From: Acidimicrobiia bacterium
Lineage (GTDB): Bacteria; Actinomycetota; Acidimicrobiia; Spongiisociales; ZC4RG35
Assembly: GCA_035281645.1 (NCBI GenBank)
Contig: DATEDN010000172.1
Location: 4,137 to 68,136, forward strand
Length of the DNA stretch: 64,000 nt
Direction: 5' to 3'
The number at the start of each line of letters is the position of its first letter. The stretch's first letter is position 1. The notes below the pieces were generated by a model. It had not been told where the DNA came from. It searched no databases and saw only the letters and a program-made list of their open reading frames with translations. Shown one piece after another: positions 18,477 through 46,780 of this stretch. The position numbers and the translations under genes are program-made.

Positions 18477-18505
18477 CAGGGTGACGAGAACCCTCCGGGG
18501 GACGC

Positions 18506-19504: not shown

Positions 19505-20922
19505 CAGAATTGGAAGTAGATGAAGGGCGCCACGCCTTCAGGGCCAAGAGCGTCGAGAACGAGGAGAAAAGCCCCCAGGGCAGCGGCCATCGGGACCGGC
19601 TGCAAGCTCACGAACGAACGCCGCAGGCGCACGCGGAGATCCGATGGCAGGTATTGGGCTCCCAACCCGCCAACGATCAGGATCGCTACCGCGGGAGTGA
19701 TGGCCGCCACTGTCCCGAAAGAGCCAAGGCGCTCGAGGACATCGACCGCGGCTGAAAGCGAGTCCGATCGAAACAAAACCCAGCCGAGACACACAACGTG
19801 GAAAATGATGACCCGCCGGAGGACCCGCCGTGCGAGGCTGTCGACCCGCTCTACACCACGCGCCGCCCGGCGAGAGGCGAGCCACCGCTCGAGGGCGAGG
19901 ACGGCGCCGTGGAGACCCCCCCACAGGACAAATGTCCAGGCGGCGCCGTGCCAGAGACCGCCCAGCAGCATGGTGATCATCAGGTTGCGATAGGTAGCGG
20001 CAGTCCCTTTGTGACTGCCTCCCAGTGGGATGTAGAGGTAGTCGCGGAGAAAGCGCGACAGCGTCATGTGCCAGCGCCGCCAAAAGTCCTGGAGACTGTC
20101 GGCGATATAGGGCCGGTTGAAGTTTTGGGGAAAGCGAAAGCCGAGCAGCAGCGCCAGGCCGATGGCGATATCCGTGTAGCCGGAGAAATCGGCGTAGATC
20201 TGGACCGCATAGCCGTAGATGCCCGCCAGCGTCTCGAGTGACGAGAAGCTCGCAGGCGAGGCAAACACCGGGTCGACCAGCGTGGTGGCAAGGGTGTTGG
20301 CTACCACCACTTTTTTGAACAAGCCACCGGCGATGAGGAGGAACCCAGCCCCGGCGGCGACCCGTCGGGGATCGTGTCGCTCCCGGAGTTGGGGCAAGAA
20401 CTCGGCGCTGCGGACGATGGGTCCGGCCACGAGATGAGGAAAGAACGAGACGAAGGCGGCGAAATCGAGGAGCGGAACCGGTTCCAGCTTTCCTCGGTAG
20501 ATGTCAATCGTGTAACTGAGCGATTGGAAGGTGAAAAAAGAAATCCCCACCGGAAGGATGATGTTGAGGATCGGTAGCGGGAGGTCGATTCCCAGAGGAG
20601 CGGTGAGATTGATCAGCGAACTAACGAAGAAGTCGTAGTACTTGAAGTACCCGAGCACTCCCAAGCTGACGATCAATCCAAGAATCAGGAGCCGCTTTCG
20701 AACCGCCGGGTCGGAGCGGCGATAGATCAGCCCGCCGATGGTGTGGTCTGCAACGGTTGTGAATGCCAAGAGGAAACAGAACCGCCAGTCCCAGGAGCCA
20801 TAGAAGAAGTAACTGGCGGTGAGAATGAAAACCTTCCACCGGCGCGGATGCGGTAAGAGCAACCAGCTCGCGGTCAAAACGACCGCGAAGAACAAGGCAA
20901 ATTCGATCGTGGGGAAAATCAC
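19504..20922 (-). CDS. MBOAT-family membrane-bound O-acyltransferase (AlgI/DltB/PatA-like)
   Basis: 472-aa polytopic membrane protein with MBOAT hallmarks (FWRRWHMTLSRFLRDYLYIPLGG...LWHG). The conserved His is present. Confidence 0.8.
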   Translation of the reverse strand: MIFPTIEFALFFAVVLTASWLLLPHPRRWKVFILTASYFFYGSWDWRFCFLLAFTTVADHTIGGLIYRRSDPAVRKRLLILGLIVSLGVLGYFKYYDFFVSSLINLTAPLGIDLPLPILNIILPVGISFFTFQSLSYTIDIYRGKLEPVPLLDFAAFVSFFPHLVAGPIVRSAEFLPQLRERHDPRRVAAGAGFLLIAGGLFKKVVVANTLATTLVDPVFASPASFSSLETLAGIYGYAVQIYADFSGYTDIAIGLALLLGFRFPQNFNRPYIADSLQDFWRRWHMTLSRFLRDYLYIPLGGSHKGTAATYRNLMITMLLGGLWHGAAWTFVLWGGLHGAVLALERWLASRRAARGVERVDSLARRVLRRVIIFHVVCLGWVLFRSDSLSAAVDVLERLGSFGTVAAITPAVAILIVGGLGAQYLPSDLRVRLRRSFVSLQPVPMAAALGAFLLVLDALGPEGVAPFIYFQF

Positions 20923-29900: not shown

Positions 29901-31434
<1,534 letters not shown>

Positions 31435-31481
31435 CTAGCCGGAGAGCTCGGGAAAGGCGGGGTCACCCTCTCCTCCGGGAC

Positions 31482-31616
31482 CGTTTCTCCCCCCAGCGAG
31501 CAGAGCGAGCATTGGGGGGGAGTGGCCCGCAGGGCCGAGGGGGGTGGGGAATCCGTGGTGATGCCATTTGTTTCCCCCTCCCCGCCTTCGGTGGGTCTCC
31601 CCCTGCGGGGGAGAAA
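31482..31616. repeat. G/C-tract-rich structured element bounded by a 13-bp long-range inverted repeat in the nusB-pyrR intergenic
   Basis: ccgtttctcccccc at 31482-31495 pairs with gggggagaaacgg at 31604-31616. Inside are a local palindrome ccccctgcggggg and several G4-G7 and C4-C7 runs. No convincing ORF. Confidence 0.35.
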
Positions 31617-31650
31617 CGGCTCGATCGAGTGTTGTCGTTCGAGTTACCGC

Positions 31651-32016
31651 TTACTGCCTCAGCCGTTCGGCAAGCTTGGCCAGCACGCCGTTGACAAACG
31701 AACCACTCCGCTCGCTCCCGTAGAGCTTGGCGAGACGAACCGCCTCGGACACCACCACCGCTTTGGGAGTACCCGGCTCGAATCGAAGCTCGTAGAGGCC
31801 GAGGCGCAGTATCGCCCGATCCACCACTGGCATTCGGTGCACCTGCCAGTGCTCAGCGACTGCTTCGATCTCGGCGTCGAGGAGGGGGAGGTTGTCGAGC
31901 ACGCCTTCGACTAATCGGGCAGCCCGGCTGGGAAGTTCGAGCGGATAATCGTCGAGGTCGCGCTGGTCGGCTTCGTAAAGCGCTTCGAGGGCGAGCTGAC
32001 GGGCTTCGATGCTCAC
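31651..32016 (-). CDS. nusB: transcription antitermination factor NusB
   Basis: 121 aa, ARxLALQALYQ-like N-terminus and an FVNGVLAK motif. Sits in an efp-nusB pair. Confidence 0.88.
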   Translation of the reverse strand: MSIEARQLALEALYEADQRDLDDYPLELPSRAARLVEGVLDNLPLLDAEIEAVAEHWQVHRMPVVDRAILRLGLYELRFEPGTPKAVVVSEAVRLAKLYGSERSGSFVNGVLAKLAERLRQ

Positions 32017-32570
32017 ACCCGCGTGAGATAGGTTCCGCTGCGGGTATCGACTCGAATCTTGTCTCCGATGTTGACGAAGAGGGGAACCGACACGACCAAC
32101 CCGGTCTGGGTCGTTGCTGGTTTGGTCGCAGCCGAGACCCTGTCACCACGAACCCCGGGCTCCGTGTAGGTGACTTCCATCTCCACCGCGGCCGGTAGGT
32201 CGACAGAGATGGGATTGCCCTTGTAGAGGGCAAGCGTGACGTTCATTCCGTCGATCAAGAAATCGGCCGCCTCTCCCACCTCCTCCGGCGCCATGGCGAA
32301 CTGTCCGTAGTCCTCCAGGTTCATGAAATGAAATCCCATGTCATCGCGATACAGGAACGTGTGCTCCCGGCGGTCGATGATGGCCTGAGCGACGTCCTCT
32401 CCGGCGCGGAAGGTCCGGTCGAGAACCTGGCCGGTTTCGAGGTTGCGCAGACGCATCCGAACGAACGCCCTCCCCTTGCCCGGCTTCACGTGTTGGTATT
32501 CGATGATGGTGAAGATCCCGTCATCGAGATCGAGAGCCTGACCGGGGCGGACGTCGTTGGTTGATGCCAT
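32013..32570 (-). CDS. efp: elongation factor P
   Basis: 185 aa with the KPGKG loop (HVKPGKGRAFVRMRLRNL). Confidence 0.93.
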   Translation of the reverse strand: MASTNDVRPGQALDLDDGIFTIIEYQHVKPGKGRAFVRMRLRNLETGQVLDRTFRAGEDVAQAIIDRREHTFLYRDDMGFHFMNLEDYGQFAMAPEEVGEAADFLIDGMNVTLALYKGNPISVDLPAAVEMEVTYTEPGVRGDRVSAATKPATTQTGLVVSVPLFVNIGDKIRVDTRSGTYLTRV

Positions 32571-32604
32571 GTCAATGAACCTACCGGTCGCGAGCCTAGA
32601 AGAA

Positions 32605-33369
32605 TCAGATCGCGTTGATCCAAGCAGCCAACGGTCCGAAGCCGGATTGGATCAGGAACTGATGGCCACCGGTGGGGATGGAAACACGTTCGGCGTTTGG
32701 AAGTAGCTCTTGCCAGCGAACGGTGTCGGCGGGGATGACGTAACGGTCGTCAACCGCGTCAAGGATCAGGTTGGGCCACCTGACTGACAGAGAACCCAGG
32801 GGTGTCAAGTCGGCAACCACGCTCAGATCCTCCAACGTGGTCCACATCGTGTCGGCTCTCGCCGCGATCGATTGCCGGCCGTAGTCGGTGATAAGCCCGG
32901 CCGGAAACCGCCTGCTGGCCCGGGCGGCCACGCTCATCGCCGGCCAAACCGTTCGGAAGAGGCCGCTGGCCACTCGGCCCCGGCCACCGGGCGCCGCCTG
33001 GGCGATTCGGAGGGCGACACCCGGCATCAGACCGGGGCGAGGAAAGAGCGCTGAGATCAACGCCAGGCCAGCTATGTCCCCCGGCCGCCTGGCCGCCCAC
33101 AGCGCAGCCAAGACCGCTCCCACCGAATGACCTGCCAGCACCGGCTTTCCCCCCGCCCATCTCGCCACTTCATCGATGGTTTCGAGGTGGAAAGCGCGGT
33201 CGTAGCGGAGGGCTGGCTTATCCGAGGAGCCGAAGCCGGCTAGGTCCGGCGCCACCAGAGTCCACCGGTGGTCGAGAAACTCAGAAAGGCCGTGCCAGTA
33301 GCGCCCCGATCCTCCGAGGCCGTGCAAGACGATCAGTGCCGGTCCCGATCCGGTCGTCCACACGTTCAT
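32605..33369 (-). CDS. alpha/beta-fold hydrolase
   Basis: HGLGGSG oxyanion region and a GHSVG nucleophile elbow. Start taken at the internal Met (MNVWTTGSGPALIVLHG). Lies immediately downstream of, and co-oriented with, the giant glucan synthase gene. Confidence 0.7.
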   Translation of the reverse strand: MNVWTTGSGPALIVLHGLGGSGRYWHGLSEFLDHRWTLVAPDLAGFGSSDKPALRYDRAFHLETIDEVARWAGGKPVLAGHSVGAVLAALWAARRPGDIAGLALISALFPRPGLMPGVALRIAQAAPGGRGRVASGLFRTVWPAMSVAARASRRFPAGLITDYGRQSIAARADTMWTTLEDLSVVADLTPLGSLSVRWPNLILDAVDDRYVIPADTVRWQELLPNAERVSIPTGGHQFLIQSGFGPLAAWINAI

Positions 33370-33410
33370 CTTGCCCCAGGCGAAGGGGAGCTCGGTTCTG
33401 GTCCAGCCCT

Positions 33411-36400
33411 TCACTCGCCCAGGATCACCCTCGCCACATGCCGCTGACCATCGTCGGTGAGGCCAATCTCGGAGTCCGGCGGCTGTTCGACCTCGTCGAG
33501 CCACAAGCTCTTTATTCCCCGCGTCGCCCCCTCCGGGTTCTCGACCCGGATCTCATATTGCGAGGAGTGGTAACGAAAGTTGATCTCGAAGCCCCGCCAC
33601 GCTCGGGGAATGCAGGGATCGATCCGGAGGCTTTGGCCCCGAAGGCGAAAGCCCAGAATCGACTCGACACCCGCCCGATACATCCAGCCTGCCGCCCCCG
33701 TGTACCAGGTCCATCCACCCCTCCCCACGTGCGGTGCTTCTGAGTAGATGTCGGCGGCCGCTACGTAAGGCTCAACTCGATAGCGATGGACGCCGGCTCG
33801 AGTGCTGGAGTGGTTTATCGGGTTCAAGATTCCGAACAGCTCACCGGCCCGATCGCCCTGGCCGAGAGTGGCGAAAGCGATGATGGCCCAGATGGCGGCA
33901 TGCGTGTACTGGCCGCCATTCTCCCGAATCCCAGACAGGTATCCCTTGATGTACCCAGGGTCGACATTCCAGCGATCGAAGGGAGGCGTGAAAAGAAGCA
34001 CCAAGCCGTCACCTCGCCTGACCAAGTACTCCTCCACTGCCGACATCGCCCGTTCGGCTCGCTCCGGCTGGCCACCCCCGTGCATGACCGACCAGGACTG
34101 GGCGATGGAGTCGATCCGGCACTCGGGATTCGCCGAAGACCCGAGCGGAGTTCCGTCGTCGAAGAAAGCCCGCAGATACCAGTCACCGTCCCAGGCCACC
34201 GCCTCCAATTGGCTCCTCATCTGCTCCGCCGAGCGCCTCCAACTCAAAGCCACTCGGCTCTTTCCGACCAAGTCAGCCAGCTCGGCAAAGCGGCGCAGGT
34301 TGGCATCGAGAAACCACCCCAACCAGACGCTTTCTCCCCGCCCTTCGATTCCTACCCGATTGAAGCCATCGTTCCAATCTCCCGAGCCGATCAGAGGCAG
34401 GCCATTGGGTCCGAGGCGCTGGCGAGCGCGGTCGAGGGCGCGCCGGCAATGATCGAACATCGTCCCTGTGCGAAAAGAGACCTCGGGCGTGAAGTAAGCC
34501 TCGTCCTCGTCGGGTTTTAGCTCCGGCCCAATGAGATAGGGAACCTCCTCCGCCAGCAGGTCGACGTCTCCTGTCACCTCGATGTAGTGCCCGACCGCAT
34601 AGGGCAGCCAGAGATAGTCATCGGAAATGCGGGTCCGCACACCCTTCCCTGACGGCTCGTGCCACCAATGCTGGACGTCGCCTTCTTCAAACTGGCGGCT
34701 CGCGGCGCGGAGGAGGTGAGCCCGTGTGGTCTCCCTCATCGGCACTGCGAGGGCCATCACGTCTTGCAGTTGATCCCGGAAACCGTACGCCCCGCCGGCT
34801 TGGTAGAAGGCCGATCGTCCCAGAACTCGACACGCCATGGCCTGATACAGGAGCCACTGGTTGATCATGATGTCGAAGGAGCGATCCGGGGTTCTCACCT
34901 GGAGGGCACCGAGAACGTCGCTCCACCGGGTCCTTACCGCCTCGCCAACCTCGTCTTGGGGGACGGATCGATATTGCTCGACCAAGGCCGATGCATGGGC
35001 CGCGTTCTCGCCTTGTCCGATCAGGAAGACGACCTCGATTTCGTCGCCGGGAGGGATGACGACCTGTCGTTGTAGAACCGCGCACGGATCGAACCCGGTG
35101 CCGGATCGACCTGAAAGACCACGTCGACGCTCGAGGGCAGCAGGGCGCTCGAGGCTACCGTGTCGCCCGAGAAACTCGGTGCGGTCGGTGGTCCAGGCGC
35201 CGACCTCCGCCCCAAAGTCGGCGAACGCCACCCGCGACCCGAAGTCTGCGTTCCAGGGGTTGCGAGCTATAAGAGCGCCGGTGCTGGTATCGCGCTCGCT
35301 AAAGATGTGGAACCGTTGGCCGACTCGGGTGGGCCCCAGCACCCATTCGACATAAGCGGTCAAGGTCAACCGTCGGCGGCGCCCGCTTTGATTTTGGAGA
35401 CGAAGCGTCGAGATCTTCACCGGGTCATCGAGAGGCACGGTCATTCGCAAGCGGCTGCGGATGCCGAAAGAGATGTGGTCGAACTCGGAGAACCCAGGTC
35501 CGTGGCGGACGACGTAGGTGGAGCCATGGTGGCGGATCGGGAGGGCAGTTGACCCCCACAGCTCACCGGTGTCGTCATCACGGATGTAGATGGTCTCGCC
35601 TGGCGGGTCGGATACCGGATCGTTCGACCAGGGCGTCAGCTGATTCTCCCGGCTGTTGCCGGCCCAGGTGAATCCCGCGCCCGATTCGGAGATGACAAAG
35701 CCGGCATTGTCGTTCGCGATCACGTTGATCCAGGGAGCCGGAGTCCACTGACCCTCGCCGAGAATCACGACGTATTCGGAAGCTCCCTCGGAAAACCCGC
35801 CGAGGCCGTTGCGAAACTCGAGGTCAATCCGGGGTTGTGGTCCTCCCGGTGATGGCGTTGGCGGGGTTTTGCGTCTCGAGGGCGCGGGAGCCGGAGGCCG
35901 GGGGCGGCGGGCGAGTTGGTCGGCCAACGTCCCGTGGTGGCTCAACACGATCGCGCGAGCGGTCGCCTGTAACAGGTTGCGGTCCGCGGCATCGAGAAGG
36001 TCGCCGCGGAAGAGGAAGACCCCCCCGTCGGGCTCGGGGCCGATGCCCCGCCCGGTGGTTCGCACCACTTCTTCGATCGTGGCATGGAGATCGGCCACAT
36101 AGGACCCGGGCTTCTCGTTGATGATCACGAGGTCTGCAGCCAGTCCTTTGGCCCGCCAGTATTCCTGGGCTCGGAGTAAGTCGCGGACGATCCCCCTGTC
36201 CTCGGGTTGATCGATTCGGAGCAGGACCACGGGAAGATCTCCCGAGATGCTGTGGCGCCAGAGCGCCGGCTGGCCACCGGTGGCCGCCGCCAGCGTTGCA
36301 GAAGGTGCGCGCATCGACGGGTCGACGTAGATCAGCCGCTGGGCGAGTTGTTGGAAAAGGTGAGCCTGTTCCGGCGTGACGCCGAGATGGTGCAATCGGA

Positions 36401-39400
36401 CCTGGGCCTGGGTCCAGGACCCCGTCAAACTCTGTTCGAACGCCCCCGGATCCGAGAACTTGTCGACCAGATCGAGCGCCTTCGCCCGGGAGGTCGCCAC
36501 CACGGTGCTGAAGCTGAGGTGAACGGTTTCCCCCGGTGGCACCCTGACCCGACGTCGCAAACTCAAGACCGGGTCAAGCACGCGTCCCACCGAGTTCGAC
36601 AGCGGACGATCGAGGGCGGCGGCCTCGTGGATCCGCCGTCCCCGGCCCAGAAAGCGAGCCCGGTCGGTCTCGAATTGAAGACCGCCTACAACTTCACCTT
36701 TGATCGCCACTACCTGGCCCGCCCAATAGGTTTCGTCACCAGCCGCTCGTGGTCGGCGATGGGCCAGGAGGGCGTCGTGGCCACCCACCGCCTCGGTTTG
36801 CACGAATAGGTTGGAAAAGGCGGGATGGGAGTCATCCGAGGACTGCGGTGCCAGCACCAATTCGGCATAAGAGGTGACTTCGATCTCCCGGGATGCGTTG
36901 TCGAGGTTGGTAAGGGTGAGGCGGCGAACCTCTACCTCATCTTCGGCCGAGACCACCACCTCGACAGTCGATCGCAGCGTTCCGTCACGCCGGCTGATCT
37001 CAGCCTTTCCCTCGGAGAATTGGACCTGATACGACTGGGGATTGACCCGGGTGGGCTGATAACCCGCCGACCAGATCGTGTCGCTGAGGTCATCACGGAT
37101 GAAAAGGAACGTGCCGTAGTTGTCAAGAGTCAGGTCCTCTCGCCAGCGCGTCACCGCCACACCGCCGAGCTTGCTGTATCCCGAGCCACTGTCGGTGATC
37201 ATCACCGAGTAGCGACCGTTCGAGAGCAGATGCGTCTCCGGTATCGCTCCCGTTGGCAGCCCGAGGTGTCGAACCGCGCCCTCGGCCTCCGTCCGCGGGT
37301 GAGCGGCCAGTGCCACCTCCTCGGCCCGCGGTCGAGCGACTTCGACGTCGCGAGGCACTCGCTCGTGCAGCAACAACTCGGCAGCCCGAACCGCCGGATC
37401 CGTGTGAAAGAGTTGGCGAATGACGCCACCGAAAACGACGTTGGCCAAGGCGATGATCGACATCGCTTGGTGATGTCCCATGTAGGCCTTCACGGTCACC
37501 CATTCCTCGTCTTCGGGGACTCGCGACGGGGTGAAGTCCACGGACTCGTAGAACCCATAGCGACCGAGCGCCCCCATGGTCGCCAGCCGCTCGAGATTCT
37601 GCAGCGCTCGACGAGGATCGATCATCGCCGCCAGCATCGACGCGTAGGGAGCTACCACCAGGTCCTCCGAGAGTCCGCGCTCGAAGCCCAGGCCGGGCAC
37701 TCCAAAGGCCGAATATTGATAGGTGAGCTGGAGGTCGCGAGCGGCAAATGCCGATTCGGAGATCCCCCAGGGGACACCTCGCTCCCGACCGTATTCGATT
37801 TGACGCCGCACCACGGCCCGGTAGGTCATGTCGAGCACGCTGTCGGTTGGTGAGTCCATTACCAAGAGCGGCATCAGGTACTCGAACATGGAGCCCGACC
37901 AAGAAATCAGGGCAGCATCCGCGCCAACCGGAGTCATCGAACGATTGAGGAGAAACCAGTGCGACGGAGGAAGGTCACCTTTGGCGATTCCGATAAAGCT
38001 GGCTAATCGAGCCTCCGAGGCGAGGAGGTCGTAATGGCTTTGATCGAGTGCTCCGTCGCTCAGCCGATAACCAACCGAAAGCAACTTGTTCTGCCGGTCC
38101 ATCAGGAACCCGAAGTCCATTCCGGTGGCCATCTCTACGGCCCAAGCCGAAATCGAATGCAGTCGCGTCCCAATCTCTTCATCGCTGACGTCTTGATCGA
38201 GCTCGTGGCTGTCGACGAGCCTCTGGAGCGCCATCGCCCATTCCAAAAGCTCTCCCGTCTCGGTTCCTGCCGCCAGGGTCTGGACGATGTCAACGAGGTT
38301 GTCGGCGGCTGCGGCCAGGGTGACTAGCCGATCGCTCTCTGACTGGCTTGCCGCCAGGAGGTCGATCAGGGCCTGGTCGAGATCACGGGGGGAGACGAAC
38401 TCGGTGTCGAGGCGATCGACCATTTGATCGGCGGTCTGGCGGATCAGAAGGGCGAGGTCACGGACTCCAAGGGCCAGCTCCGAGGGGCGCCCGACGAGGC
38501 GCAAGCACCCCTGGGAGAGAGCTAATAGATGTCCGGCCAAATTGCCGGAATCAACCGAGGAGATGTAACGAGGATTTAGTGGCTCGAGGGTGCGGGTGTC
38601 GTACCAGTTGAGGAGATGGCCTCCGTAGCGCTCGAGGCGGAACATGCCGGCCATCGTCTGCTCCCACCGGGTGATGGCCTCGACGGTGCCGATCCAGCCG
38701 AATTCCCTCGCCGCCAACACCGACAGGAGATAAAGGCCCAGGTTGGTGGGCGAGGTCCGATGAGCGATCGCCGCCGGCTCCTCCTGGAAATTGTCTGGCG
38801 GCAGATAGTTGTCGTCAGCTGTCACGAAGCGCTCGAAGTAGCTCCAAGTTTTCCGGGCGAGCAACCGGAATGCCTCCACCTCGGATACCTCGAGTGGTGC
38901 CGTCGGGGCGGGCCGCCTGGTCTTGCTCGCCTCATAGGCCAAATATGGAGCAGCCACCCAGGCCGCGGCCAGCGGTGCCGCCACCCAAAGCGCCACGGGC
39001 TTGACCAAGGCCGCGGCCGCAATGGCCGCCAGTCCCAGAAGCGCCGGCGGGGCCATCCGCTTTTGGAATTCGGCGAGTTCAAGACCAAAACGACGCTCAG
39101 CCTCTTCCGAGGTCATCCAGCGGAGCAGATGTCGTTTCGAGACCAGCATCCGCCAAAGGGTGGTGAGAATCGCATCCGCCATCACGAGCGCCTGATAGGC
39201 CAGGAACGAAATCTGGAGTCCGATCCGACCGAGAACCCGACCGGTATCTTCCAACCAGCGCTGGAATCTGATCGCTCCCGGCGTGGTGGTTCGGCGTGGG
39301 ACCAATCGTTCGAGCAGGGGAAGCATGGCCGGGAAGGCCAATGCGGCGATAACGAGAATGAGCGGTGACCAGAGCGGAACGGCGGGTATGACGCAGGCGG

Positions 39401-41810
39401 CCAACAGGAGGGCAAACGACGCCGGCCCGTTCAGACTGCGGCGCAGATTGTCGATCATCTTCAGGCGAGCGACGGCATCGAGGGCCCCTCTTCTTCCGAG
39501 GATCCAGGGCAGAAGTTGCCAGTCGCCCCTGACCCACCGATGCTGGCGCTGGATCGCCACTTCGTAGTGACTGGGAAACTCCTCGAAGACCTCGACGTTG
39601 GTGACCAGACCGGCGCGGGCGAAGCTGCCCTCGAAGAGGTCGTGTGAGAGCAATGCGTTATCCGGCACCCTCCCGGCCAGGGACGCCTCGAAGGCATCGA
39701 TGTCATAGATGCCCTTCCCGGCGTAGGAGCCCTCGGAGAAGAGGTCCTGGTAAACGTCACTCACCGCTGCTGCATAGGGATCGACCCCGGCTGGTGGTGA
39801 AAATGCTTGTTGATAGAAGGAGGTGCTCTCCGTACTGAGAAAGGGCGTCACCCTGGGCTGCAGGACCCCGTAACCATCTGTTACCCGTCCCAGGCCGGGT
39901 GAGAAAACCGGCTGATTGAGGGGATGGGCGATGGTGGCCACGAGCCGGGTCGCAGCTGCGGGGGGCAAACGAGAGTCAGCGTCGAGGGTGATGACGTAAC
40001 GAACTCCTTCCGGGGGCACCGTCTCGGGCAAGAACGAGGTGTCGGTCGCCCCGCGCAACAAGCGATTGAGCTCGTGGAGTTTTCCTCGTTTTCTCTCCCA
40101 GCCCATGTGTTGACCCTCACTGGGGTTGAAAAGCCGGTGACGCTGGAAGAGATGAAAGCGAGGTTCATCTGGCAGCGGGTGCCGCTCGTTGAGGCGGGCA
40201 ATCCCCGCCTCGGCCAAAGTGAAAAGCTCATTGTCGGAAGCGTCGTCGGCGTTCTCGGAGTCGCGGTAGTCGGAGACGAGCGCAAAACGGAACTCGCCCT
40301 CGGGATTGGCCAGGTAATGAACCTCAAGCCGGTCAACGAGCTCGTCGACCTGGCCAGCCCGAGTCAGCATTACCGGGATGGCCACCATGGTCTTCGATTC
40401 GGCATCGGGGCCTACGGCCAGATCGAGCGCTGGGAGCATCCCCGGTCGAACGAAGCCGGTAACAAGTCGATTGACGACACTGACTGCTAGGTCGGTGGCC
40501 GGGAAGAAGCCGATGAGGCCGACCAACAAGGCCAGCCAAGCTCCTCCCGCCTCGAGCGTTCTGACTAATGGAACTGCCAGGAAAACCAGGGCCAGCGAAA
40601 GGATCGACCCCCAGTAGACCGCCGCTGCTGATCGCTTGAGGCCGCGGCGAAGATGTTGCGTCCACGATGGCCGAAAGTCGATGGCGGATTCCAGTTCCGG
40701 GCGGCCCCGGTCTAACAAGAAGAATCCGGGATCCGCCTCCCGGCTCCGGCGCGGGCGTTGACGAGCGAGATCCGACGCCGTGCGGGCGATCTCAAGCTGG
40801 GTGTGATGCGAGCCTTTTGAAAGCTCCTCGACCACGTGGCGATAGAGATCGCGAGTGGCAAAGCTCATGCTTTTGAAGGCGGTGCCCTCCGAGAAGGTAG
40901 CGTCGACCAGGCTGACCCTTTCGACGAATTCGGACCACTCGAAGGATGAGATCTGGCGAAGGCTGGTGACGACGTTGCGCACGGTCACATTTGTCGCCGC
41001 CTGCCGCTGCTGGGCTTCGGTGACAAGCTCGTCGGGGCTTTGGCCCAGCCCGGCGAGATAGTCGAGCAGCCAGCTCAATCCAGCCGTGGTCTCCGGATCA
41101 CGGTCGCGCAGCCGCTGCAGCAGCTGGACGGCCATCGCTCGTGGAATTCGTTCCATCCTGCCCAGCTGCCGGAGGCCATCCTCGGGAAAGCGCCCACCGA
41201 CCTCGAGGAGAGAATCGGCAATCTGATCGGCTACCCGGCGCTGCCCCCTTGCCCGGATAATGATCTCTGCGAGCCGTCGCAGGTTCTCGATCATCACCAG
41301 GCGGATGGCGATTGGCATCGCCCAAAGCTCGCCGATGGTGAGAGGCTCTTCCTCCTGAAATGCGGCAATGAAGCGCTCGAGGGTTTCCGCCTCGAAGCGG
41401 CTGTCGTGATGGGCTACATACGCCCATGCGATCTCGTAGATGCGTGGATAGCCGGCCAGATGGCCGTTCTCAACCTTTGGAAGTTCGCGGTAGTAAGAAG
41501 CGGGCAGGGTCTTGCGCACCGCTGCCAGCTGCGCTTCGACCAGGTGGAAGTTATCCACCAGCCATTCCGCCGCGGGGGTGAGCATGCTCTCCTCGCGAAT
41601 TGCCTGGGCGAGCTCCCGATAGGCAGCGAGGAGAACGTGGCCGTTTTCCGTCAGTCGCCTCGAGATCAGGCGGAACCTTCCTGGCGCCGCGCTCAGCTCC
41701 TGGGTCTTGGCGAGGCTACGGGCATGCTCTTCCAGCCTCTCGACGCTGAATAGCTCCGCACGGATCGGTTCTCCGGCCGGCCCGGCCGGCGATTCCCATG
41801 GCCAGCGCAC
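33411..41810 (-). CDS. cyclic beta-1,2-glucan synthase-like protein (NdvB/ChvB/Cgs family), 2799 aa with a GT84 glycosyltransferase and a C-terminal GH94 phosphorylase-like domain
   Basis: Size matches Cgs (about 2830-2870 aa). First TM cluster lies about 400 aa in. GT84 hallmarks are present (ITLDADS DxD, GWERKRGKL, HRWVRGDWQ). More TM segments follow. The C-terminal roughly 1200 aa carry GH94 motifs (GYLSGIRENGGQYTHAAIW, WLGWFL). Confidence 0.8.
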   Translation of the reverse strand: MRWPWESPAGPAGEPIRAELFSVERLEEHARSLAKTQELSAAPGRFRLISRRLTENGHVLLAAYRELAQAIREESMLTPAAEWLVDNFHLVEAQLAAVRKTLPASYYRELPKVENGHLAGYPRIYEIAWAYVAHHDSRFEAETLERFIAAFQEEEPLTIGELWAMPIAIRLVMIENLRRLAEIIIRARGQRRVADQIADSLLEVGGRFPEDGLRQLGRMERIPRAMAVQLLQRLRDRDPETTAGLSWLLDYLAGLGQSPDELVTEAQQRQAATNVTVRNVVTSLRQISSFEWSEFVERVSLVDATFSEGTAFKSMSFATRDLYRHVVEELSKGSHHTQLEIARTASDLARQRPRRSREADPGFFLLDRGRPELESAIDFRPSWTQHLRRGLKRSAAAVYWGSILSLALVFLAVPLVRTLEAGGAWLALLVGLIGFFPATDLAVSVVNRLVTGFVRPGMLPALDLAVGPDAESKTMVAIPVMLTRAGQVDELVDRLEVHYLANPEGEFRFALVSDYRDSENADDASDNELFTLAEAGIARLNERHPLPDEPRFHLFQRHRLFNPSEGQHMGWERKRGKLHELNRLLRGATDTSFLPETVPPEGVRYVITLDADSRLPPAAATRLVATIAHPLNQPVFSPGLGRVTDGYGVLQPRVTPFLSTESTSFYQQAFSPPAGVDPYAAAVSDVYQDLFSEGSYAGKGIYDIDAFEASLAGRVPDNALLSHDLFEGSFARAGLVTNVEVFEEFPSHYEVAIQRQHRWVRGDWQLLPWILGRRGALDAVARLKMIDNLRRSLNGPASFALLLAACVIPAVPLWSPLILVIAALAFPAMLPLLERLVPRRTTTPGAIRFQRWLEDTGRVLGRIGLQISFLAYQALVMADAILTTLWRMLVSKRHLLRWMTSEEAERRFGLELAEFQKRMAPPALLGLAAIAAAALVKPVALWVAAPLAAAWVAAPYLAYEASKTRRPAPTAPLEVSEVEAFRLLARKTWSYFERFVTADDNYLPPDNFQEEPAAIAHRTSPTNLGLYLLSVLAAREFGWIGTVEAITRWEQTMAGMFRLERYGGHLLNWYDTRTLEPLNPRYISSVDSGNLAGHLLALSQGCLRLVGRPSELALGVRDLALLIRQTADQMVDRLDTEFVSPRDLDQALIDLLAASQSESDRLVTLAAAADNLVDIVQTLAAGTETGELLEWAMALQRLVDSHELDQDVSDEEIGTRLHSISAWAVEMATGMDFGFLMDRQNKLLSVGYRLSDGALDQSHYDLLASEARLASFIGIAKGDLPPSHWFLLNRSMTPVGADAALISWSGSMFEYLMPLLVMDSPTDSVLDMTYRAVVRRQIEYGRERGVPWGISESAFAARDLQLTYQYSAFGVPGLGFERGLSEDLVVAPYASMLAAMIDPRRALQNLERLATMGALGRYGFYESVDFTPSRVPEDEEWVTVKAYMGHHQAMSIIALANVVFGGVIRQLFHTDPAVRAAELLLHERVPRDVEVARPRAEEVALAAHPRTEAEGAVRHLGLPTGAIPETHLLSNGRYSVMITDSGSGYSKLGGVAVTRWREDLTLDNYGTFLFIRDDLSDTIWSAGYQPTRVNPQSYQVQFSEGKAEISRRDGTLRSTVEVVVSAEDEVEVRRLTLTNLDNASREIEVTSYAELVLAPQSSDDSHPAFSNLFVQTEAVGGHDALLAHRRPRAAGDETYWAGQVVAIKGEVVGGLQFETDRARFLGRGRRIHEAAALDRPLSNSVGRVLDPVLSLRRRVRVPPGETVHLSFSTVVATSRAKALDLVDKFSDPGAFEQSLTGSWTQAQVRLHHLGVTPEQAHLFQQLAQRLIYVDPSMRAPSATLAAATGGQPALWRHSISGDLPVVLLRIDQPEDRGIVRDLLRAQEYWRAKGLAADLVIINEKPGSYVADLHATIEEVVRTTGRGIGPEPDGGVFLFRGDLLDAADRNLLQATARAIVLSHHGTLADQLARRPRPPAPAPSRRKTPPTPSPGGPQPRIDLEFRNGLGGFSEGASEYVVILGEGQWTPAPWINVIANDNAGFVISESGAGFTWAGNSRENQLTPWSNDPVSDPPGETIYIRDDDTGELWGSTALPIRHHGSTYVVRHGPGFSEFDHISFGIRSRLRMTVPLDDPVKISTLRLQNQSGRRRRLTLTAYVEWVLGPTRVGQRFHIFSERDTSTGALIARNPWNADFGSRVAFADFGAEVGAWTTDRTEFLGRHGSLERPAALERRRGLSGRSGTGFDPCAVLQRQVVIPPGDEIEVVFLIGQGENAAHASALVEQYRSVPQDEVGEAVRTRWSDVLGALQVRTPDRSFDIMINQWLLYQAMACRVLGRSAFYQAGGAYGFRDQLQDVMALAVPMRETTRAHLLRAASRQFEEGDVQHWWHEPSGKGVRTRISDDYLWLPYAVGHYIEVTGDVDLLAEEVPYLIGPELKPDEDEAYFTPEVSFRTGTMFDHCRRALDRARQRLGPNGLPLIGSGDWNDGFNRVGIEGRGESVWLGWFLDANLRRFAELADLVGKSRVALSWRRSAEQMRSQLEAVAWDGDWYLRAFFDDGTPLGSSANPECRIDSIAQSWSVMHGGGQPERAERAMSAVEEYLVRRGDGLVLLFTPPFDRWNVDPGYIKGYLSGIRENGGQYTHAAIWAIIAFATLGQGDRAGELFGILNPINHSSTRAGVHRYRVEPYVAAADIYSEAPHVGRGGWTWYTGAAGWMYRAGVESILGFRLRGQSLRIDPCIPRAWRGFEINFRYHSSQYEIRVENPEGATRGIKSLWLDEVEQPPDSEIGLTDDGQRHVARVILGE

Positions 41811-41852
41811 GAAACTCAGAATAAGGGAGCTACCGCCCGGTCCTAACGTAGG

Positions 41853-42275
41853 TTGATGGACGCGGCCATCAAGGCGGCCCTAGATCGGGGCGGAATCGTC
41901 GACATCAGCACGGTCGGGGCCCAAACGGGGAGGAACAGGCGGATCGAGATCTATCTGCATCAATTCGATGGCCGCTACTACATCACCGGACGGCCCGGGC
42001 GCCGACGAGACTGGCTCGCCAATCTCATCGCCAACCCGCATTTCACGGTGCACTTAAAACGCGGATTGCAGGCGGACGTTCCTGCCGTGGCGGCGGAGAT
42101 CACCGACCCGGCTGAGCGCGAGCGCGTTATCTATCGCGCCCGAACGGAGAGCTGGAACGCCAGCCCCGATGATGCCCGAAGGGACATGGACTTCTGGGTG
42201 AAGACGTCTCCGCTGGTCGTCCTGGAGCCGACCGGACTAGGCGATGCCCACCGCCCGGAGGCCGACTTCCAGTAA
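41853..42275 (+). CDS. deazaflavin (F420)-dependent nitroreductase-family protein (Ddn/DUF385-like)
   Basis: 140-aa split-barrel pattern (STVGAQTGRNRRIEIYLHQFDGRYYITGR...DWLANLIANPHFTV). Divergent from the glucan synthase gene with a 42-bp intergenic. Its 3' end overlaps convergent aroB. Confidence 0.6.
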   Translation: MMDAAIKAALDRGGIVDISTVGAQTGRNRRIEIYLHQFDGRYYITGRPGRRRDWLANLIANPHFTVHLKRGLQADVPAVAAEITDPAERERVIYRARTESWNASPDDARRDMDFWVKTSPLVVLEPTGLGDAHRPEADFQ

Positions 42276-43265
42276 ATCGGAGCTGACCGGTTCCACCACC
42301 GGGGATCCGGGAGCTTTGAGGAGGACCATTCTGACTCCGGCGTTGGATCGCTTCTTGTCGCGAGCGATCATCTCCAAGGCCGAGTCCAGGGAAACTCCCG
42401 CGGCAGCTACTGGCAGTCCGAGCCCGAAGATTGTCTCGATGAGCTGGCGATGGTCGAAACCAAAGCGGGCGTTGGAAACGGTGGCTGCTGCCACCATCCC
42501 CACCGCCACTGCCAAGCCGTGGGGCATGGGAGCGAGGATCTCCACGGCATGCCCCACCGTGTGACCAAAATTGAGAATCGCCCGACGATCGCTTTCTCGA
42601 TAGTCAGCCTCGACCGTGGCTGCCTTCACCTTGACCGCCCGCTCCACCACCTCGCCGAGCGACAAGTCCTGACCACGCGAGGCCAAGATGTCGACCAAGT
42701 ATGGGTCGGCGACATATCCGGCCTTCAAGGCCTCCGCCAAGCCTTCCAGCCGCAGGGAGGGTGGCAGCGTTTCCAGAAGGTCGAGGTTGATGAGGACCCG
42801 GCTGGGGAGGTGGAAGGAACCGATCAGATTTTTGCCGGCGAAGTTGATTCCGGTTTTGCCCCCGATGGCGGCATCGACCGCCCCCAACAGAGTCGTTGGG
42901 TAAAAGACCGCTTCGATGCCGCGAAGCCAGGTGGCGGCAACAAATCCGGCCAAGTCGGTGGCAGCCCCTCCGCCGACGGCGAGAATCGTGTCGTGGCGGC
43001 CAAGGCCGAGTTCGGCCAGCCATTCGTAGACGCGGTTCACGACGATGAGTGATTTCGCCTCCTCCCGGTCGGGAAGCACAAACTGATCGGTGGCTCCGCT
43101 TCGGGCCGCGGCATCCGCAGCCGGCCCTAACGCTCCGGGCGAGAGCAATACCACCGTACGTTCCCGCGTCGCTCTCGGTGGCAAGAGGGGCTCGGGAAGT
43201 CCATGGCCGATGATGATCTCTGAGGCCTGCTCGGCAAGGGTGGGCGTGATCGTCAGTCGTGCCAC
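42237..43265 (-). CDS. aroB: 3-dehydroquinate synthase
   Basis: 342 aa with a GGG(A)xxD NAD-binding site and metal-binding His residues (HTVGHAVE). Confidence 0.9.
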   Translation of the reverse strand: MARLTITPTLAEQASEIIIGHGLPEPLLPPRATRERTVVLLSPGALGPAADAAARSGATDQFVLPDREEAKSLIVVNRVYEWLAELGLGRHDTILAVGGGAATDLAGFVAATWLRGIEAVFYPTTLLGAVDAAIGGKTGINFAGKNLIGSFHLPSRVLINLDLLETLPPSLRLEGLAEALKAGYVADPYLVDILASRGQDLSLGEVVERAVKVKAATVEADYRESDRRAILNFGHTVGHAVEILAPMPHGLAVAVGMVAAATVSNARFGFDHRQLIETIFGLGLPVAAAGVSLDSALEMIARDKKRSNAGVRMVLLKAPGSPVVEPVSSDLLEVGLRAVGIA

Positions 43266-43765
43266 AGCGCCTCCACCAGGTCGGCCGCTTCTACCGGAGA
43301 CAGCAAGTCGGTGCTGATGGCAAAGTCAGCAGCGGCTCGATACGCCTCCTGGCGGTCGTCGAGAATTCCCCGAAGCGACGCTTCGACGTCGTCGTCGAAG
43401 ATCAGGGGTCGATTGGTCCCCTTGCTCTCGGCGGCGATGCGAGCAGCCAGCGTCGCCGGCTCGGCCTGGACCCAGAAGATCAGCCCGGTGCGCCGCATCG
43501 TGTCTACGTTCTGAGATCGCAGCACTGCCCCTCCCCCAGTGGCCACCACCGCACCGGGGTGGGATGAAACCAACGCCACCGCTTCAGATTCCCGGATTCT
43601 GAATCCTGCCTCACCCTCGGTGGCGAAAAGCTCGGTGATATCACGGCCGGTGGCTTCCATCACCACATCGTCGGTATCGATGAACTTCCAGCCCTTGCGC
43701 TCGGCAATGATCTTTCCCAGGGTCGACTTGCCCGCCCCCATCATCCCAATCAGCCAGAGAGGCAT
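43253..43765 (-). CDS. aroK: shikimate kinase
   Basis: 170 aa with P-loop GMMGAGKST. Confidence 0.88.
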   Translation of the reverse strand: MPLWLIGMMGAGKSTLGKIIAERKGWKFIDTDDVVMEATGRDITELFATEGEAGFRIRESEAVALVSSHPGAVVATGGGAVLRSQNVDTMRRTGLIFWVQAEPATLAARIAAESKGTNRPLIFDDDVEASLRGILDDRQEAYRAAADFAISTDLLSPVEAADLVEALWHD

Positions 43766-44974: not shown

Positions 44975-45652
44975 TCAGCTCAAGATGAACGGAGTCGAAA
45001 TGATCGCTGCCCATGTTCCAAAGATGAGCGGGGGCCCGTAAGGAATGGCGGTCTTCCGGCTCTTGCCCATCGCCAGCAAGATCAGGGCCGGGATTCCTCC
45101 GAGGAGCGAGGTGATGAAAAGGGAGTAGGCCAGGGTGCGATAGGAATGGAAGCCGGCGAAGAAACCGAGCAGGAGCGCGAGCTTGACGTCACCAAATCCA
45201 AAACCCTCGCCCCGGGCTGCCAGATATACGAGAAGGAGGAGGGTGAAATAGCCCGCCGCCCCGATGAAAGCCGGTCGCAACGACAGGGCTCGGCCTTCGA
45301 TGATCGCTGCTCCCGTCAGCAGCACCATGGCGATGGTTCCTCCGGGGTAGAGGAGGCGGTTGGGAATCCGGAAGTGGTCGAGGTCGGTGACCACCAGCAT
45401 TGCGGTCAGCGAGACCATCACCAGATGGGCGACTAGAACCGGGGTAAGCCCGAATGTGTTTGCCATCCCCCAGTATGCGAGGCCGACCAGGAGCGACGCC
45501 CCGAGCTCCCGCCATCGCCAGCCTCGAACCATGCCTTGTATAGGGGCATTCCCCGCTGCCGTTCTGAAGGGGCGGTCGGCGCCGACCGCCACCGCGAAGC
45601 GATGGAGCACTGGGCCTTGGAGGAGTCCGAGCGCCGCGATCAGGAGATTCAC
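44975..45652 (-). CDS. A24-family prepilin peptidase, short form without an N-terminal zinc-finger/methyltransferase domain
   Basis: 225-aa polytopic membrane protein with the two catalytic Asp regions (TDLDHFRIPN and GFGFGDVKL). Confidence 0.75.
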   Translation of the reverse strand: MNLLIAALGLLQGPVLHRFAVAVGADRPFRTAAGNAPIQGMVRGWRWRELGASLLVGLAYWGMANTFGLTPVLVAHLVMVSLTAMLVVTDLDHFRIPNRLLYPGGTIAMVLLTGAAIIEGRALSLRPAFIGAAGYFTLLLLVYLAARGEGFGFGDVKLALLLGFFAGFHSYRTLAYSLFITSLLGGIPALILLAMGKSRKTAIPYGPPLIFGTWAAIISTPFILS

Positions 45653-45691
45653 GGAGCGAGACCTTACGGTCGGAAGGGCTGGCGGTAGCGG

Positions 45692-46780
45692 TTAGTCGTC
45701 GAGACCGACGGAAGACATCCGACGCCGCTTGAGGAACCCATGAGAGGGAACCTGGCTGGCCCCGCCCTGACCCTCGGGGTTCTCGTTCAGCTGGGAGAAG
45801 ACCCGATCCAAAAAGGAGTCGGAGCCGGCTGGCGTTTCCTCCTCGCCTTCCTCTGAGTCGGCGGGGGTTTCGTCGGCGGCCGATTCGGCGGTCGACTCGG
45901 CCGGGACGGCCTCGGCCCACCAGCTGCGATTGAAGTCGGCTTCCTTTGGCTCCGGCCGGGCTGGTTCGGGCTCGGCCTCGCTATAGGACGGCTCGTAAGA
46001 GGGTTGCGGTTCGACCGGCTCTGATGGCGGTTCGGAGGGCTCGGAGGGCATCGAGGTCTCATAGCCGGCGTAGGAATAGCTGCGACCCGGGGGGGCGGCG
46101 GCAGGCTCGGGAGCGCGCACCGCCTCGACCAGTCCCGCCCGAACGAGGGCGGCCAGGTCCTTGGCGGTCCGGAAGCGACTCGCACCCAAGCGGTCGGCGA
46201 GTGCACGAATGGATGAGGTGCCATCGAAATTGGCAACCAGCTTCCACGTGTTGGGGGCGAGGGTGACGGGTTCGTTGTTGGGTGCTTCACTGATTATCCG
46301 GACGCTTTCGTCGATCGTGGGGATCACCGACTCGATGTCGGCCCACTCCACTGCTCGCCGGTCGGCTTCGGAAATGCACATCTCGACGTCGAAGGCTTGC
46401 TCGCTTCGGTAGCGAGGAGCGACGTCCACGTTGAATACAAACTGGCCCCGGCCGGGCTTGCGGATGCGGTAGAGGCTCTCGATCACTTCTTCCCGGAAGA
46501 AATCGGAGAGTCCGGAGGGAGCGGTTGAATCCGACAGAGAACGGCCACCCACCTCGGCCGCCCGGACGGCGTCCTCACTGACCACCTTGGAGTTGATGAG
46601 CTGACGGCGAAGATCTTCATCGCTGCCAATGGTGGCAAAGGTCACCGATCCGCCGTTTAAGAAAACGCGACCGTGGAGGTCGGGAGCGTCTACTCGCAAG
46701 CAGCCGCTCTTGTAGGAACGCGCTAGCAAGCGGAGAACTTCCTCCAAGGGGAAAACATCAATGTGCCCAGTCAACGACAT
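45692..46780 (-). CDS. DUF4388-domain protein with an acidic Pro/Glu/Ser-rich disordered C-terminal half
   Basis: N-terminus (GHIDVFPLEEVLRLLARSYKSGCLRVDAPD...) matches the DUF4388 pattern. The C-terminus carries PSEPSEPPSEPVEPQPSYEPSYSEAEPEP repeats and a basic tail. Confidence 0.55.
   Translation of the reverse strand: MSLTGHIDVFPLEEVLRLLARSYKSGCLRVDAPDLHGRVFLNGGSVTFATIGSDEDLRRQLINSKVVSEDAVRAAEVGGRSLSDSTAPSGLSDFFREEVIESLYRIRKPGRGQFVFNVDVAPRYRSEQAFDVEMCISEADRRAVEWADIESVIPTIDESVRIISEAPNNEPVTLAPNTWKLVANFDGTSSIRALADRLGASRFRTAKDLAALVRAGLVEAVRAPEPAAAPPGRSYSYAGYETSMPSEPSEPPSEPVEPQPSYEPSYSEAEPEPARPEPKEADFNRSWWAEAVPAESTAESAADETPADSEEGEEETPAGSDSFLDRVFSQLNENPEGQGGASQVPSHGFLKRRRMSSVGLDD

Follow-up and report, generated by a model that had tools for sequence, protein, structure and literature searches.

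A probable cyclic β-1,2-glucan synthase gene inserted between aroB and efp in a lineage of Acidimicrobiia

The 64-kb stretch of Acidimicrobiia DNA analysed here (the window) carries on its minus strand one large gene, cgs, whose product is very probably a cyclic glucan synthase of the Cgs/NdvB/ChvB type. The gene lies within a lineage-specific insertion in a block of housekeeping genes, where purifying selection has maintained it; its mechanism is predicted by homology with the enzymes of Agrobacterium tumefaciens and Thermoanaerobacter italicus. To our knowledge, work on cyclic β-1,2-glucans has dealt almost exclusively with alpha-proteobacteria, in which they are osmoprotectants of the periplasm and host-interaction factors. 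The Cgs family is already known, and the window gene adds one more data point to it rather than a new principle.

Domain architecture and active sites

An earlier note on this DNA had described a single reading frame of 2799 codons with Cgs motifs, and the translation agrees, placing LDADS at residues 609–613, GWERKRGKL at 570–578 and RENGGQYTHAAIW at 2629–2641. The exact product is already deposited at NCBI as HKZ21083.1, "glucoamylase family protein". Using phmmer against the PDB, we found that residues 14–2761 are collinear with residues 23–2808 of the 2818-residue chain in the cryo-EM structure of A. tumefaciens Cgs (8rf0; 2406 bits, E = 0), a match far beyond chance; 8rf9 was also matched over its full length. 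Identity to the A. tumefaciens enzyme is about 54–55% in the GT84, GH189 and GH94 cores, and the Pfam matches follow the order expected for Cgs domains. Because the identity gradients run in parallel across all four regions, a chimeric origin of the domains was ruled out. The features of the gene are as follows.

33411..41810, minus strand: cgs open reading frame, 2799 aa, GTG start, one uninterrupted frame (open reading frame listing and translation)
40626..41810, minus strand: N-terminal scaffold domain (NTD), about residues 1–395; no Pfam family, alignment to 8rf0 from residue 14
38928..40625, minus strand: predicted membrane anchor and GT84 glycosyltransferase, about residues 396–961, from the 8rf0 alignment
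39981–39983 and 39975–39977, minus strand: codons of the GT84 DxD motif, D610/D612 (A. tumefaciens D624/D626)
39774–39776, minus strand: codon of the putative primer Tyr679 (A. tumefaciens Y694)
39639–39641, minus strand: codon of the GT84 catalytic base D724 (A. tumefaciens D739)
37308..38927, minus strand: cyclase domain (CY), GH189, GH144-like (α/α)6 fold, about residues 962–1501; PF10091 at 1259–1470
38013–38015, minus strand: codon of the CY acid/base E1266 (T. italicus E1356)
37755–37757, minus strand: codon of the CY nucleophile E1352 (T. italicus E1442)
33414..37307, minus strand: GH94 phosphorylase (GP) region, about residues 1502–2799; PF06165 twice, PF17167, PF03633
34773–34775, minus strand: codon of GH94 D2346 in GFRD (A. 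tumefaciens D2393)
34368–34370, minus strand: codon of the GH94 catalytic acid D2481 in GDWNDG (A. tumefaciens D2528)

The NTD is homologous to the domain that holds the tyrosine-linked primer glucan in A. tumefaciens Cgs (PMC10901819). Its identity is 58–59% in the other subclade of Acidimicrobiia and 47% when an alphaproteobacterial homologue is compared. The GT84 region is 55% identical to that of A. tumefaciens over 297 residues. Kyte-Doolittle peaks at 398–416, 428–446, 793–835 (which could hold two helices), 867–885 and 923–957 flank the glycosyltransferase core at the positions of the Cgs transmembrane helices, as judged by hydropathy. The HMM check proposed earlier for both enzyme families was strongly positive for GH94, whereas GT84 membership comes from alignment to the founding member and not from a curated model, and Pfam gave a sub-threshold GT2_3 match only. 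An identity as OpgH/MdoH (GT2) was rejected, since the corresponding NCBIfam model NF003962 has a cut-off of 328 bits and scores only 23.3 here.

All experimentally defined catalytic residues are retained, the primer tyrosine included. The GT84 motif set is complete, with a UDP-coordinating Asp (D514, A. tumefaciens D527), the DxD motif, the catalytic-base Asp, the (Q)xxRW motif (R758-W759, corresponding to R773-W774) and two Arg near IF2/IF3 (R573 and R761, corresponding to R586 and R776). Thus, the equivalents of D527, D624, D626, D739, R773, R586, R776 and Y694, whose roles are described in PMC10901819, are all present, as are those of S1101, D1104, E1300, D2393 and D2528. Tyr679 (in GVDPYAAAV) is the counterpart of Y694 (in GIDPYVFTV) of the IF1-homology loop, would be the site of autoglucosylation, and is a tyrosine in all 67 homologues. 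A check of the catalytic Asp residues, suggested in the earlier note, found D610/D612, D724, D2346 and D2481 in place. Across homologues from more than ten phyla, the catalytic residues are invariant in 65–67 of 67 sequences.

The earlier note had read the architecture as GT84 plus GH94; both are present, but the GH189 domain between them was missed. This CY segment matches the T. italicus cyclisation domain (8wy1, E 3e-99) and 8rf0 (E 2e-121). Besides the acid/base and the nucleophile, its key residues are E1310, equivalent to the pKa-tuning or supporting E1400, H1446/H1447, equivalent to H1536/H1537, and D1087; the T. italicus roles were established in PMC10834661, and the CY catalytic residues are invariant in 67 of 67 homologues. 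In the GP region, the GH94 supersandwich domain is matched in two stretches (Pfam, E 2e-159), followed by the catalytic barrel PF17167 at residues 2296–2720 (E 5e-118) and a GH65C-like segment at 2721–2762; the region also holds a Rossmann-like insert and a variable Pro-rich linker near residues 1966–1995. H2637 lies within RENGGQYTH, and the GH94 key residues are invariant in 65–67 of the 67 homologues. Cyclisation had been assigned earlier to GH94. The published enzymes place ring closure in the middle domain and phosphorolytic length control in GH94 (PMC10901819, PMC10834661), so that assignment does not hold.

The product names used by NCBI ("glucoamylase family protein", "GH36-type glycosyl hydrolase domain-containing protein") and the title of PF10091, "Putative glucoamylase", might suggest a glucoamylase or a simple glycoside hydrolase. 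We give this reading hardly any probability, and the domain architecture refutes it: PF10091 spans only residues 1259–1470 in a segment matching 8wy1, Pfam reports no GH15 or GH36 catalytic domain, and GT84 and GH94 account for the remainder. The Cgs family is systematically under-annotated in metagenome-assembled genomes (MAGs) because no NCBIfam model reaches threshold.

The mechanism by which a Cgs-type synthase might act here is carried over by homology from two known enzymes, those of A. tumefaciens and T. italicus. About six helices would hold the protein in the cytoplasmic membrane, and its catalytic domains would all lie on the cytoplasmic side. GT84 would glucosylate Tyr679 from UDP-glucose and then extend a β-1,2 chain there. 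The C-terminal GH94 would phosphorolyse over-long chains, thereby controlling length, and could also serve as a glucan-binding platform. GH189, with nucleophile E1352 and acid/base E1266, would cut the chain and join its ends by transglycosylation, releasing a ring of about 17–25 glucoses into the cytoplasm while the primer stays on the tyrosine. Whereas identity, architecture, residue conservation, insertion and selection are shown by the sequence analysis, a cyclic β-1,2-glucan as the product is predicted from homology, and the size of the rings and whether they are exported or retained are likewise predictions.

A mainly degradative or remodelling enzyme acting on soil β-1,2-glucans or sophoro-oligosaccharides, or a maker of linear glucans, could be imagined instead of de novo ring synthesis, since the GH94 and GH189 reactions are reversible or transfer reactions, stand-alone relatives are catabolic and an exporter gene is not nearby. 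We regard this as improbable. The GT84 active site and primer tyrosine are intact and invariant, the four-domain fusion is a synthase architecture, genes for uptake or β-glucosidase were not found nearby, and a CY domain on its own turns long chains into rings and does not hydrolyse them (PMC10834661).

The insertion between aroB and efp

On one side, cgs is flanked by carB, carA, pyrC, pyrB, pyrR, nusB and efp, and on the other by aroB, aroK, aroC, aroE, mltG, ruvX and alaS, all on the minus strand. The genes at the insertion are listed below.

42237..43265, minus strand: aroB, upstream boundary of the insertion; TIGR01357
41853..42275, plus strand: F420H2-dependent quinone reductase (DDN) family gene, 140 aa, divergent; PF04075, E 1e-8
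32605..33414, minus strand: alpha/beta-fold hydrolase directly downstream of cgs; NCBIfam alpha/beta hydrolase matches
32013..32570, minus strand: efp, downstream boundary of the insertion; TIGR00038

We scanned metagenome contigs for aroB, which gave three loci, and read the synteny of sister lineages from homologous proteins and their encoding contigs. The earlier note had seen cgs as one gene dropped into a housekeeping block. The insertion itself stands, since aroB is followed directly by efp in four sister loci (L082, L084, L085 and L086), but cgs did not come alone. The order aroB, DDN, cgs, alpha/beta hydrolase, efp was seen only in the window's own lineage, where it recurs in MAGs and contigs of independent origin (L001, L002 and L081). 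A relative with Cgs at 86% (P0002) and AroB at 84% (P0123), each recorded on a contig 2,931,732 bp long, therefore probably has the same arrangement. The DDN-family gene, whose start codon lies 42 bp from the cgs start and which overlaps the aroB 3' end by 39 bp, adjoins cgs only in L001, L002 and L081 and is absent from the four sister loci; it was co-inserted with cgs. The alpha/beta hydrolase changed position. It has a homologue after nusB in sister lineages (55% in L086 and 41% in L085) and is therefore a resident gene that has moved, not a partner specific to cgs. Its candidate GTG start (33414–33412) overlaps the cgs TGA in the sequence GTGA, so both genes may be co-transcribed.

No integrase or transposase gene was found at the insertion, and flanking direct or inverted repeats did not exceed chance-sized matches. 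The sole tRNA candidate, at 29903–29999, was rejected, as it lies inside pyr coding sequence and has no Rfam support. A promoter and terminator scan of 31200–43400 gave nothing above shuffled expectation. The GC content and GC3 of cgs equal those of the rest of the window; together with the monophyly of the Acidimicrobiia Cgs clade, this composition rules out a recent horizontal transfer. A lineage-specific insertion brought cgs and the small F420-family gene to their place between aroB and efp, and purifying selection has acted on cgs ever since.

Such an insertion, missing from sister lineages, might also have left cgs as a decaying or silent passenger of horizontal transfer with no present function, and no sigma-70-like promoter was found near it in a weak scan that does not cover other promoter types. 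This is most improbable given that at least six independent assemblies carry the 8.4-kb frame uninterrupted, that dN/dS is about 0.1 (0.10 against L001 and 0.08 against L002), that all catalytic residues are retained in a gene of host-like composition, and that neither mobile-element genes nor flanking repeats were found. A chimeric or mis-binned contig, with cgs really belonging to a Gram-negative soil bacterium, is less probable still. All sources are metagenome-assembled and one member of the Acidimicrobiia clade, L009, is labelled Acidobacteriota, but within one contig cgs has on either side housekeeping genes that find their best relatives in Acidimicrobiia, the same junctions occur in L001, L002 and L081 and probably in the P0002/P0123 relative, and GC is uniform.

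Distribution and fate of the glucan

The earlier note described the Cgs family as characterised mainly in alpha-proteobacteria. The searches show that it is not rare elsewhere: relatives occur in at least 598 species genomes of more than ten phyla, including Paenibacillus, Bacillus and cultured monoderm Bacillota. About 58 clusters (at 90% identity) are 63–91% identical to the window protein, and the named ones are all Acidimicrobiia or Actinomycetota; the earlier suspicion that ubiquitous close homologues would make the gene unremarkable is thus partly borne out. In a neighbour-joining tree, the Acidimicrobiia clade that includes the window protein is monophyletic, and enzymes of the Bacillota type branch off deeply on their own; full-length identity to the Bacillota homologues is about 37–40%. 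The GH189 domain, the wide distribution and the co-inserted gene lower the significance of the earlier reading, the core of which stands.

The earlier observation that no ChvA/NdvA-type exporter lies nearby was confirmed, as no open reading frame of at least 200 aa in the 64-kb window combines a Walker A motif with an ABC signature. Pfam identified only housekeeping genes around the window cgs. The same holds for most homologous loci: among 80, an ABC-type frame of exporter size (about 660 aa) lies within 10 kb of cgs only in L018 and L058, and no exporter gene was found adjoining cgs in other Acidimicrobiia loci. All-against-all BLASTP of five other full-length Acidimicrobiia loci recovered only cgs in common. 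Ten of the larger cgs neighbours in other loci are unrelated by Pfam (GMP synthase, CheA-like kinase, dynamin-like GTPases, molybdopterin oxidoreductase, sugar kinase, LuxR regulator and TrpS/TyrS). With no such exporter in the window or adjoining the gene, the classical periplasmic role is not simply transferable.

Our literature searches found no biochemical work on any Acidimicrobiia enzyme or on cyclic glucans of Actinomycetota, and no dedicated study of GT84 or cyclic glucan synthases in Actinobacteria or Gram-positives. Tentatively, and with more doubt than confidence, we propose that soil Acidimicrobiia make cyclic β-1,2-glucans and handle them unlike proteobacteria, by cytoplasmic retention or by release via an unrelated transporter, since they would lack both a periplasm and a ChvA/NdvA-type exporter. 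A retained glucan might act in the cytoplasm as an osmolyte or protect against desiccation, and a released one might act in the wall or the soil as a cyclodextrin-like sequestrant. If true, Actinomycetota would have a first example of a cyclic glucan physiology, gained in this lineage via insertion in the aro/efp core block. An intact, selected cgs in Acidimicrobiia and relatives in many other soil phyla, monoderm Bacillota among them, support the idea that such glucans could be a general trait of soil bacteria.

Comparison with known systems

The Brucella abortus Cgs and the Sinorhizobium meliloti NdvB are of the A. tumefaciens ChvB/Cgs type. The window protein resembles the A. tumefaciens enzyme (8RF0, 8RF9; Sedzicki et al. 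2024, PMC10901819) in length (2799 versus about 2830 aa) and in the domain order NTD, TM/GT84, CY and GH94, and differs in its Pro-rich, variable RFL-GP2 linker. The purified A. tumefaciens enzyme alone is enough for cyclic glucan synthesis in proteoliposomes (PMC10901819). Its host is an alpha-proteobacterium with a periplasm, whereas that of the window gene is a monoderm-type actinobacterium, where cgs stands in a housekeeping block with no chvA/ndvA adjoining or in the window, and not in a virulence or symbiosis locus. The T. italicus enzyme, the founding member of GH189 (8WY1; Tanaka et al. 2024, PMC10834661), likewise comes from a non-proteobacterial host; its nucleophile, acid/base, supporting Glu and His-His pair are conserved in the window CY domain, although it was characterised as an isolated domain only. 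Cellobiose and chitobiose phosphorylases align over their whole length with the C-terminal 800 residues (E ~1e-93) and have in common with them the catalytic Asp as well as the motifs GFRD and GGQYTH. Unlike these stand-alone catabolic enzymes, the window phosphorylase forms part of a larger synthase that would be anchored in the membrane, and it would serve length control and scaffolding. Other members of the Acidimicrobiia clade in public metagenomes (among them P0003–P0058, L003–L005 and L059) are full-length and 63–66% identical, but occupy unrelated, non-conserved genomic positions, unlike the window lineage with its recurrent place between aroB and efp.

The cyclic glucan synthase and its catalytic residues

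According to the ORF listing and translation, cgs is a single unbroken ORF of 2799 codons with a GTG start (33411..41810, minus strand), confirming the Cgs size claimed in the earlier note, and all motifs quoted there are present: GWERKRGKL (residues 570–578), LDADS (609–613), and RENGGQYTHAAIW (2629–2641). The protein is identical to NCBI entry HKZ21083.1 on a 92-kb contig. Hydrophobic segments lie on either side of the GT core, at the positions of the Cgs membrane helices; a GT2 Pfam match at 732–830 is sub-threshold. The middle region matches the cyclisation domain of Thermoanaerobacter italicus (Ti; 8wy1, GH189), and the C-terminal 800 residues match cellobiose and chitobiose phosphorylases. 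Identity to Agrobacterium tumefaciens Cgs (Atu; 8rf0) is 55% in the GT core, 54% in the cyclase core, and 53.5% in the phosphorylase core. The proposed GT84 plus GH94 architecture was thus borne out for both cores but had overlooked the middle GH189 domain. Cyclisation, which had been assigned to GH94, belongs to this middle domain, whereas GH94 serves in phosphorolytic chain-length control and as a scaffold (PMC10901819, PMC10834661). Identity to homologues follows parallel gradients in all four regions and gives no hint of a chimeric protein.

Pfam domains of the cgs protein and catalytic residues with their counterparts
Two copies: GH94 supersandwich domain
2296–2720: GH94 catalytic domain
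Tail: GH65C-like
1259–1470: PF10091, "putative glucoamylase"
GT84 D514 (Atu D527): UDP coordination
GT84 R573, R761 (Atu R586, R776): Arg near IF2/IF3
GT84 D610/D612 (Atu D624/D626): DxD motif
GT84 Y679 (Atu Y694): primer tyrosine
GT84 D724 (Atu D739): catalytic base
GT84 R758-W759 (Atu R773-W774): RW motif
Cyclase S1084, D1087 (Atu S1101, D1104): active-site residues
Cyclase E1266 (Atu E1300, Ti E1356): acid/base
Cyclase E1310 (Ti E1400): supporting Glu
Cyclase E1352 (Ti E1442): nucleophile
Cyclase H1446/H1447 (Ti H1536/H1537): His-His pair
GH94 D2346 (Atu D2393): active site
GH94 D2481 (Atu D2528): catalytic acid

With residue roles taken from Sedzicki et al. 2024 (PMC10901819) and Tanaka et al. 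2024 (PMC10834661), every functionally defined residue was found in the cgs protein when mapped from alignments, and the tabulated catalytic positions are invariant in 65–67 of the 67 full-length homologues aligned with MAFFT, which span more than 10 phyla. A catabolic or linear-glucan role is unlikely, and so is a "glucoamylase" as the database label has it. NCBI names full-length synthases, HKZ21083.1 and cluster members among them, "glucoamylase family protein", "GH36-type glycosyl hydrolase domain-containing protein", or "glycosyl hydrolase family 65 protein". NCBIfam holds no fitting model for the protein; the top one, MdoH, scores 23 bits where its cut-off is 328. With such names and no model reaching threshold, Cgs is systematically under-annotated in MAGs.

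The dN/dS ratio (Nei-Gojobori) is 0.10 against the homologous locus L001 and 0.08 against L002. Together with the conserved residues, these low values identify an intact Cgs under purifying selection; a silent passenger gene is unlikely. The composition of cgs equals that of the window remainder (GC 0.63–0.64, GC3 0.74), and the window aroB protein matches one from an Acidimicrobiia MAG at 100% identity; a mis-binned contig is likewise unlikely.

Insertion between aroB and efp

Genes around cgs
One side, all minus: carB, carA, pyrC, pyrB, pyrR, nusB, efp
32605–33414, minus: alpha/beta hydrolase, downstream of cgs
41853–42275, plus: DDN-like gene (F420H2-dependent quinone reductase family, PF04075), 140 aa
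Other side, all minus: aroB, aroK, aroC, prepilin-peptidase-like, PatA_N/DUF4388, aroE, mltG, ruvX, alaS
Rest of the 64 kb: housekeeping (pheS, rplT, infC, rib operon, def, metK, gmk, pyrD, aspS, hisS, relA, secD)

The order aroB, DDN-like, cgs, hydrolase, efp was found only in L001 (97%), L002 (91%), and L081, a short metagenome contig; a 2.93-Mb contig carrying P0002 (Cgs, 86%) and P0123 (aroB, 84%) probably provides a fourth example. In four sister-lineage loci, only 15–70 bp separate aroB from a following efp-nusB (aroB identity 61–68% by BLASTP in L084, L085, and L086, about 57% in L082), and pyrR-pyrB-pyrC-carA-carB recurs in L084–L086, which reach far enough. Because aroB directly adjoins efp-nusB there, cgs was indeed dropped into a conserved block, as a lineage-specific insertion. 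Scans of the window revealed no tRNA, integrase, or flanking repeat marking the site. Elsewhere among Acidimicrobiia, the surroundings of cgs genes are unrelated and not conserved.

The insertion of a single gene, as originally envisaged, holds for cgs itself but not for its neighbours. The DDN-like gene is divergent from cgs with start codons 42 bp apart, overlaps the aroB 3' end by 39 bp, and is present only where cgs occupies the site (L001, L002, L081), being missing from the sister loci; it arrived together with cgs. Hydrolase homologues lie between nusB and pyrR in L086 (11999–12799, 55%) and L085 (11904–12695, 41%), so the hydrolase is probably a resident that has crossed to the opposite side of efp-nusB, rather than a cgs partner. 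The cgs TGA and the candidate GTG start of the hydrolase overlap (GTGA), and the two genes may therefore be co-transcribed.

Several other features were observed in the window. The prepilin-peptidase (A24) and PatA_N/DUF4388 genes between aroC and aroE (44975–46780, minus) form a pair found at the same place in L084–L086, and are thus a conserved oddity of the aro block in this class. ARAGORN called a 97-nt tRNA-Glu(CTC) at 29903–29999 (minus), inside the pyrB coding sequence beside the pyrC junction; it is probably a false positive, and across the whole window no Rfam family reached its gathering score. In pyrR (30802–31340, minus), the first ATG/GTG/TTG is at 31236, and homology to sister-lineage PyrR continues upstream of it for about 32 stop-free codons. 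Translation of pyrR probably begins at a non-canonical codon. Rfam gave no PyrR-binding-site match in the 415-bp spacer between nusB and pyrR. A response-regulator-GGDEF (diguanylate cyclase) gene (8812–9741, minus), which immediately follows the riboflavin operon in the same orientation, is unconnected with cgs.

Proposed glucan synthesis and possible export

By homology, Tyr679 would be autoglucosylated from UDP-glucose, GT84 would extend the beta-1,2 chain, GH94 would trim it by phosphorolysis, and GH189 would close the ring by transglycosylation, freeing a ring of about 17–25 glucoses into the cytoplasm. The product, its ring size, and its cellular fate are accordingly those we infer from characterised enzymes.

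As previously noted, no exporter is nearby: the whole window contains no ORF with Walker A and ABC signature. An exporter-sized ABC protein lies within 10 kb of cgs in 2 of 80 homologous loci (L018, L058), and its absence is typical of the family, not diagnostic. According to the cryo-EM study (PMC10901819), Cgs synthesises its glucan on the cytoplasmic side of the membrane, and its membrane domain does not form a channel; export of the glucan, if any, needs another protein. An MFS transporter gene (17292–18677, minus) lies near an MBOAT O-acyltransferase gene (19504–20922, minus) divergent from a DUF4015 putative glycosyl hydrolase gene (20934–22610, plus), all 11–16 kb away from cgs. Since DUF4015 occupies the equivalent position in L084, where cgs is missing, no link of these genes to cgs is indicated.

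Distribution of the family

The best 58 clusters in a 5.8-billion-protein collection share 63–91% identity with the cgs protein, 57 of them covering at least 97% of it (the exception, P0058, is partial, 89%), and their named members are all Acidimicrobiia or Actinomycetota. Beneath them come Alphaproteobacteria, Binatia, and Vicinamibacterales. In a neighbour-joining tree, Acidimicrobiia Cgs form one clade with two subclades, and Bacillota a separate deep branch. L009 (CAWENM010000004.1), labelled "uncultured Acidobacteriota bacterium", encodes a Cgs 64–66% identical to the window protein and nested in the Acidimicrobiia clade, reflecting either a mislabelled bin or inter-phylum transfer.

Scanning species-representative genomes, we found relatives in at least 598 genomes, with Acidobacteriota, Chloroflexota, Gemmatimonadota, Myxococcota, Planctomycetota, Desulfobacterota, Bacteroidota, and Alphaproteobacteria among the matches listed, as well as the cultured monoderm Bacillota Paenibacillus glycinis, P. 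baekrokdamisoli, P. humicus, Bacillus sp., and Ectobacillus funiculus. The earlier interpretation is essentially supported, but its significance was over-rated, given the many phyla, monoderms included. This wide spread and the sizeable Acidimicrobiia clade are visible in public data. Our literature search found no paper on actinobacterial GT84 or cyclic glucan synthases; CAZy GT84 already records about 1,930 intact synthases (PMC12102758). The gene adds to a well-characterised enzyme family, in which this Acidimicrobiia member is new.
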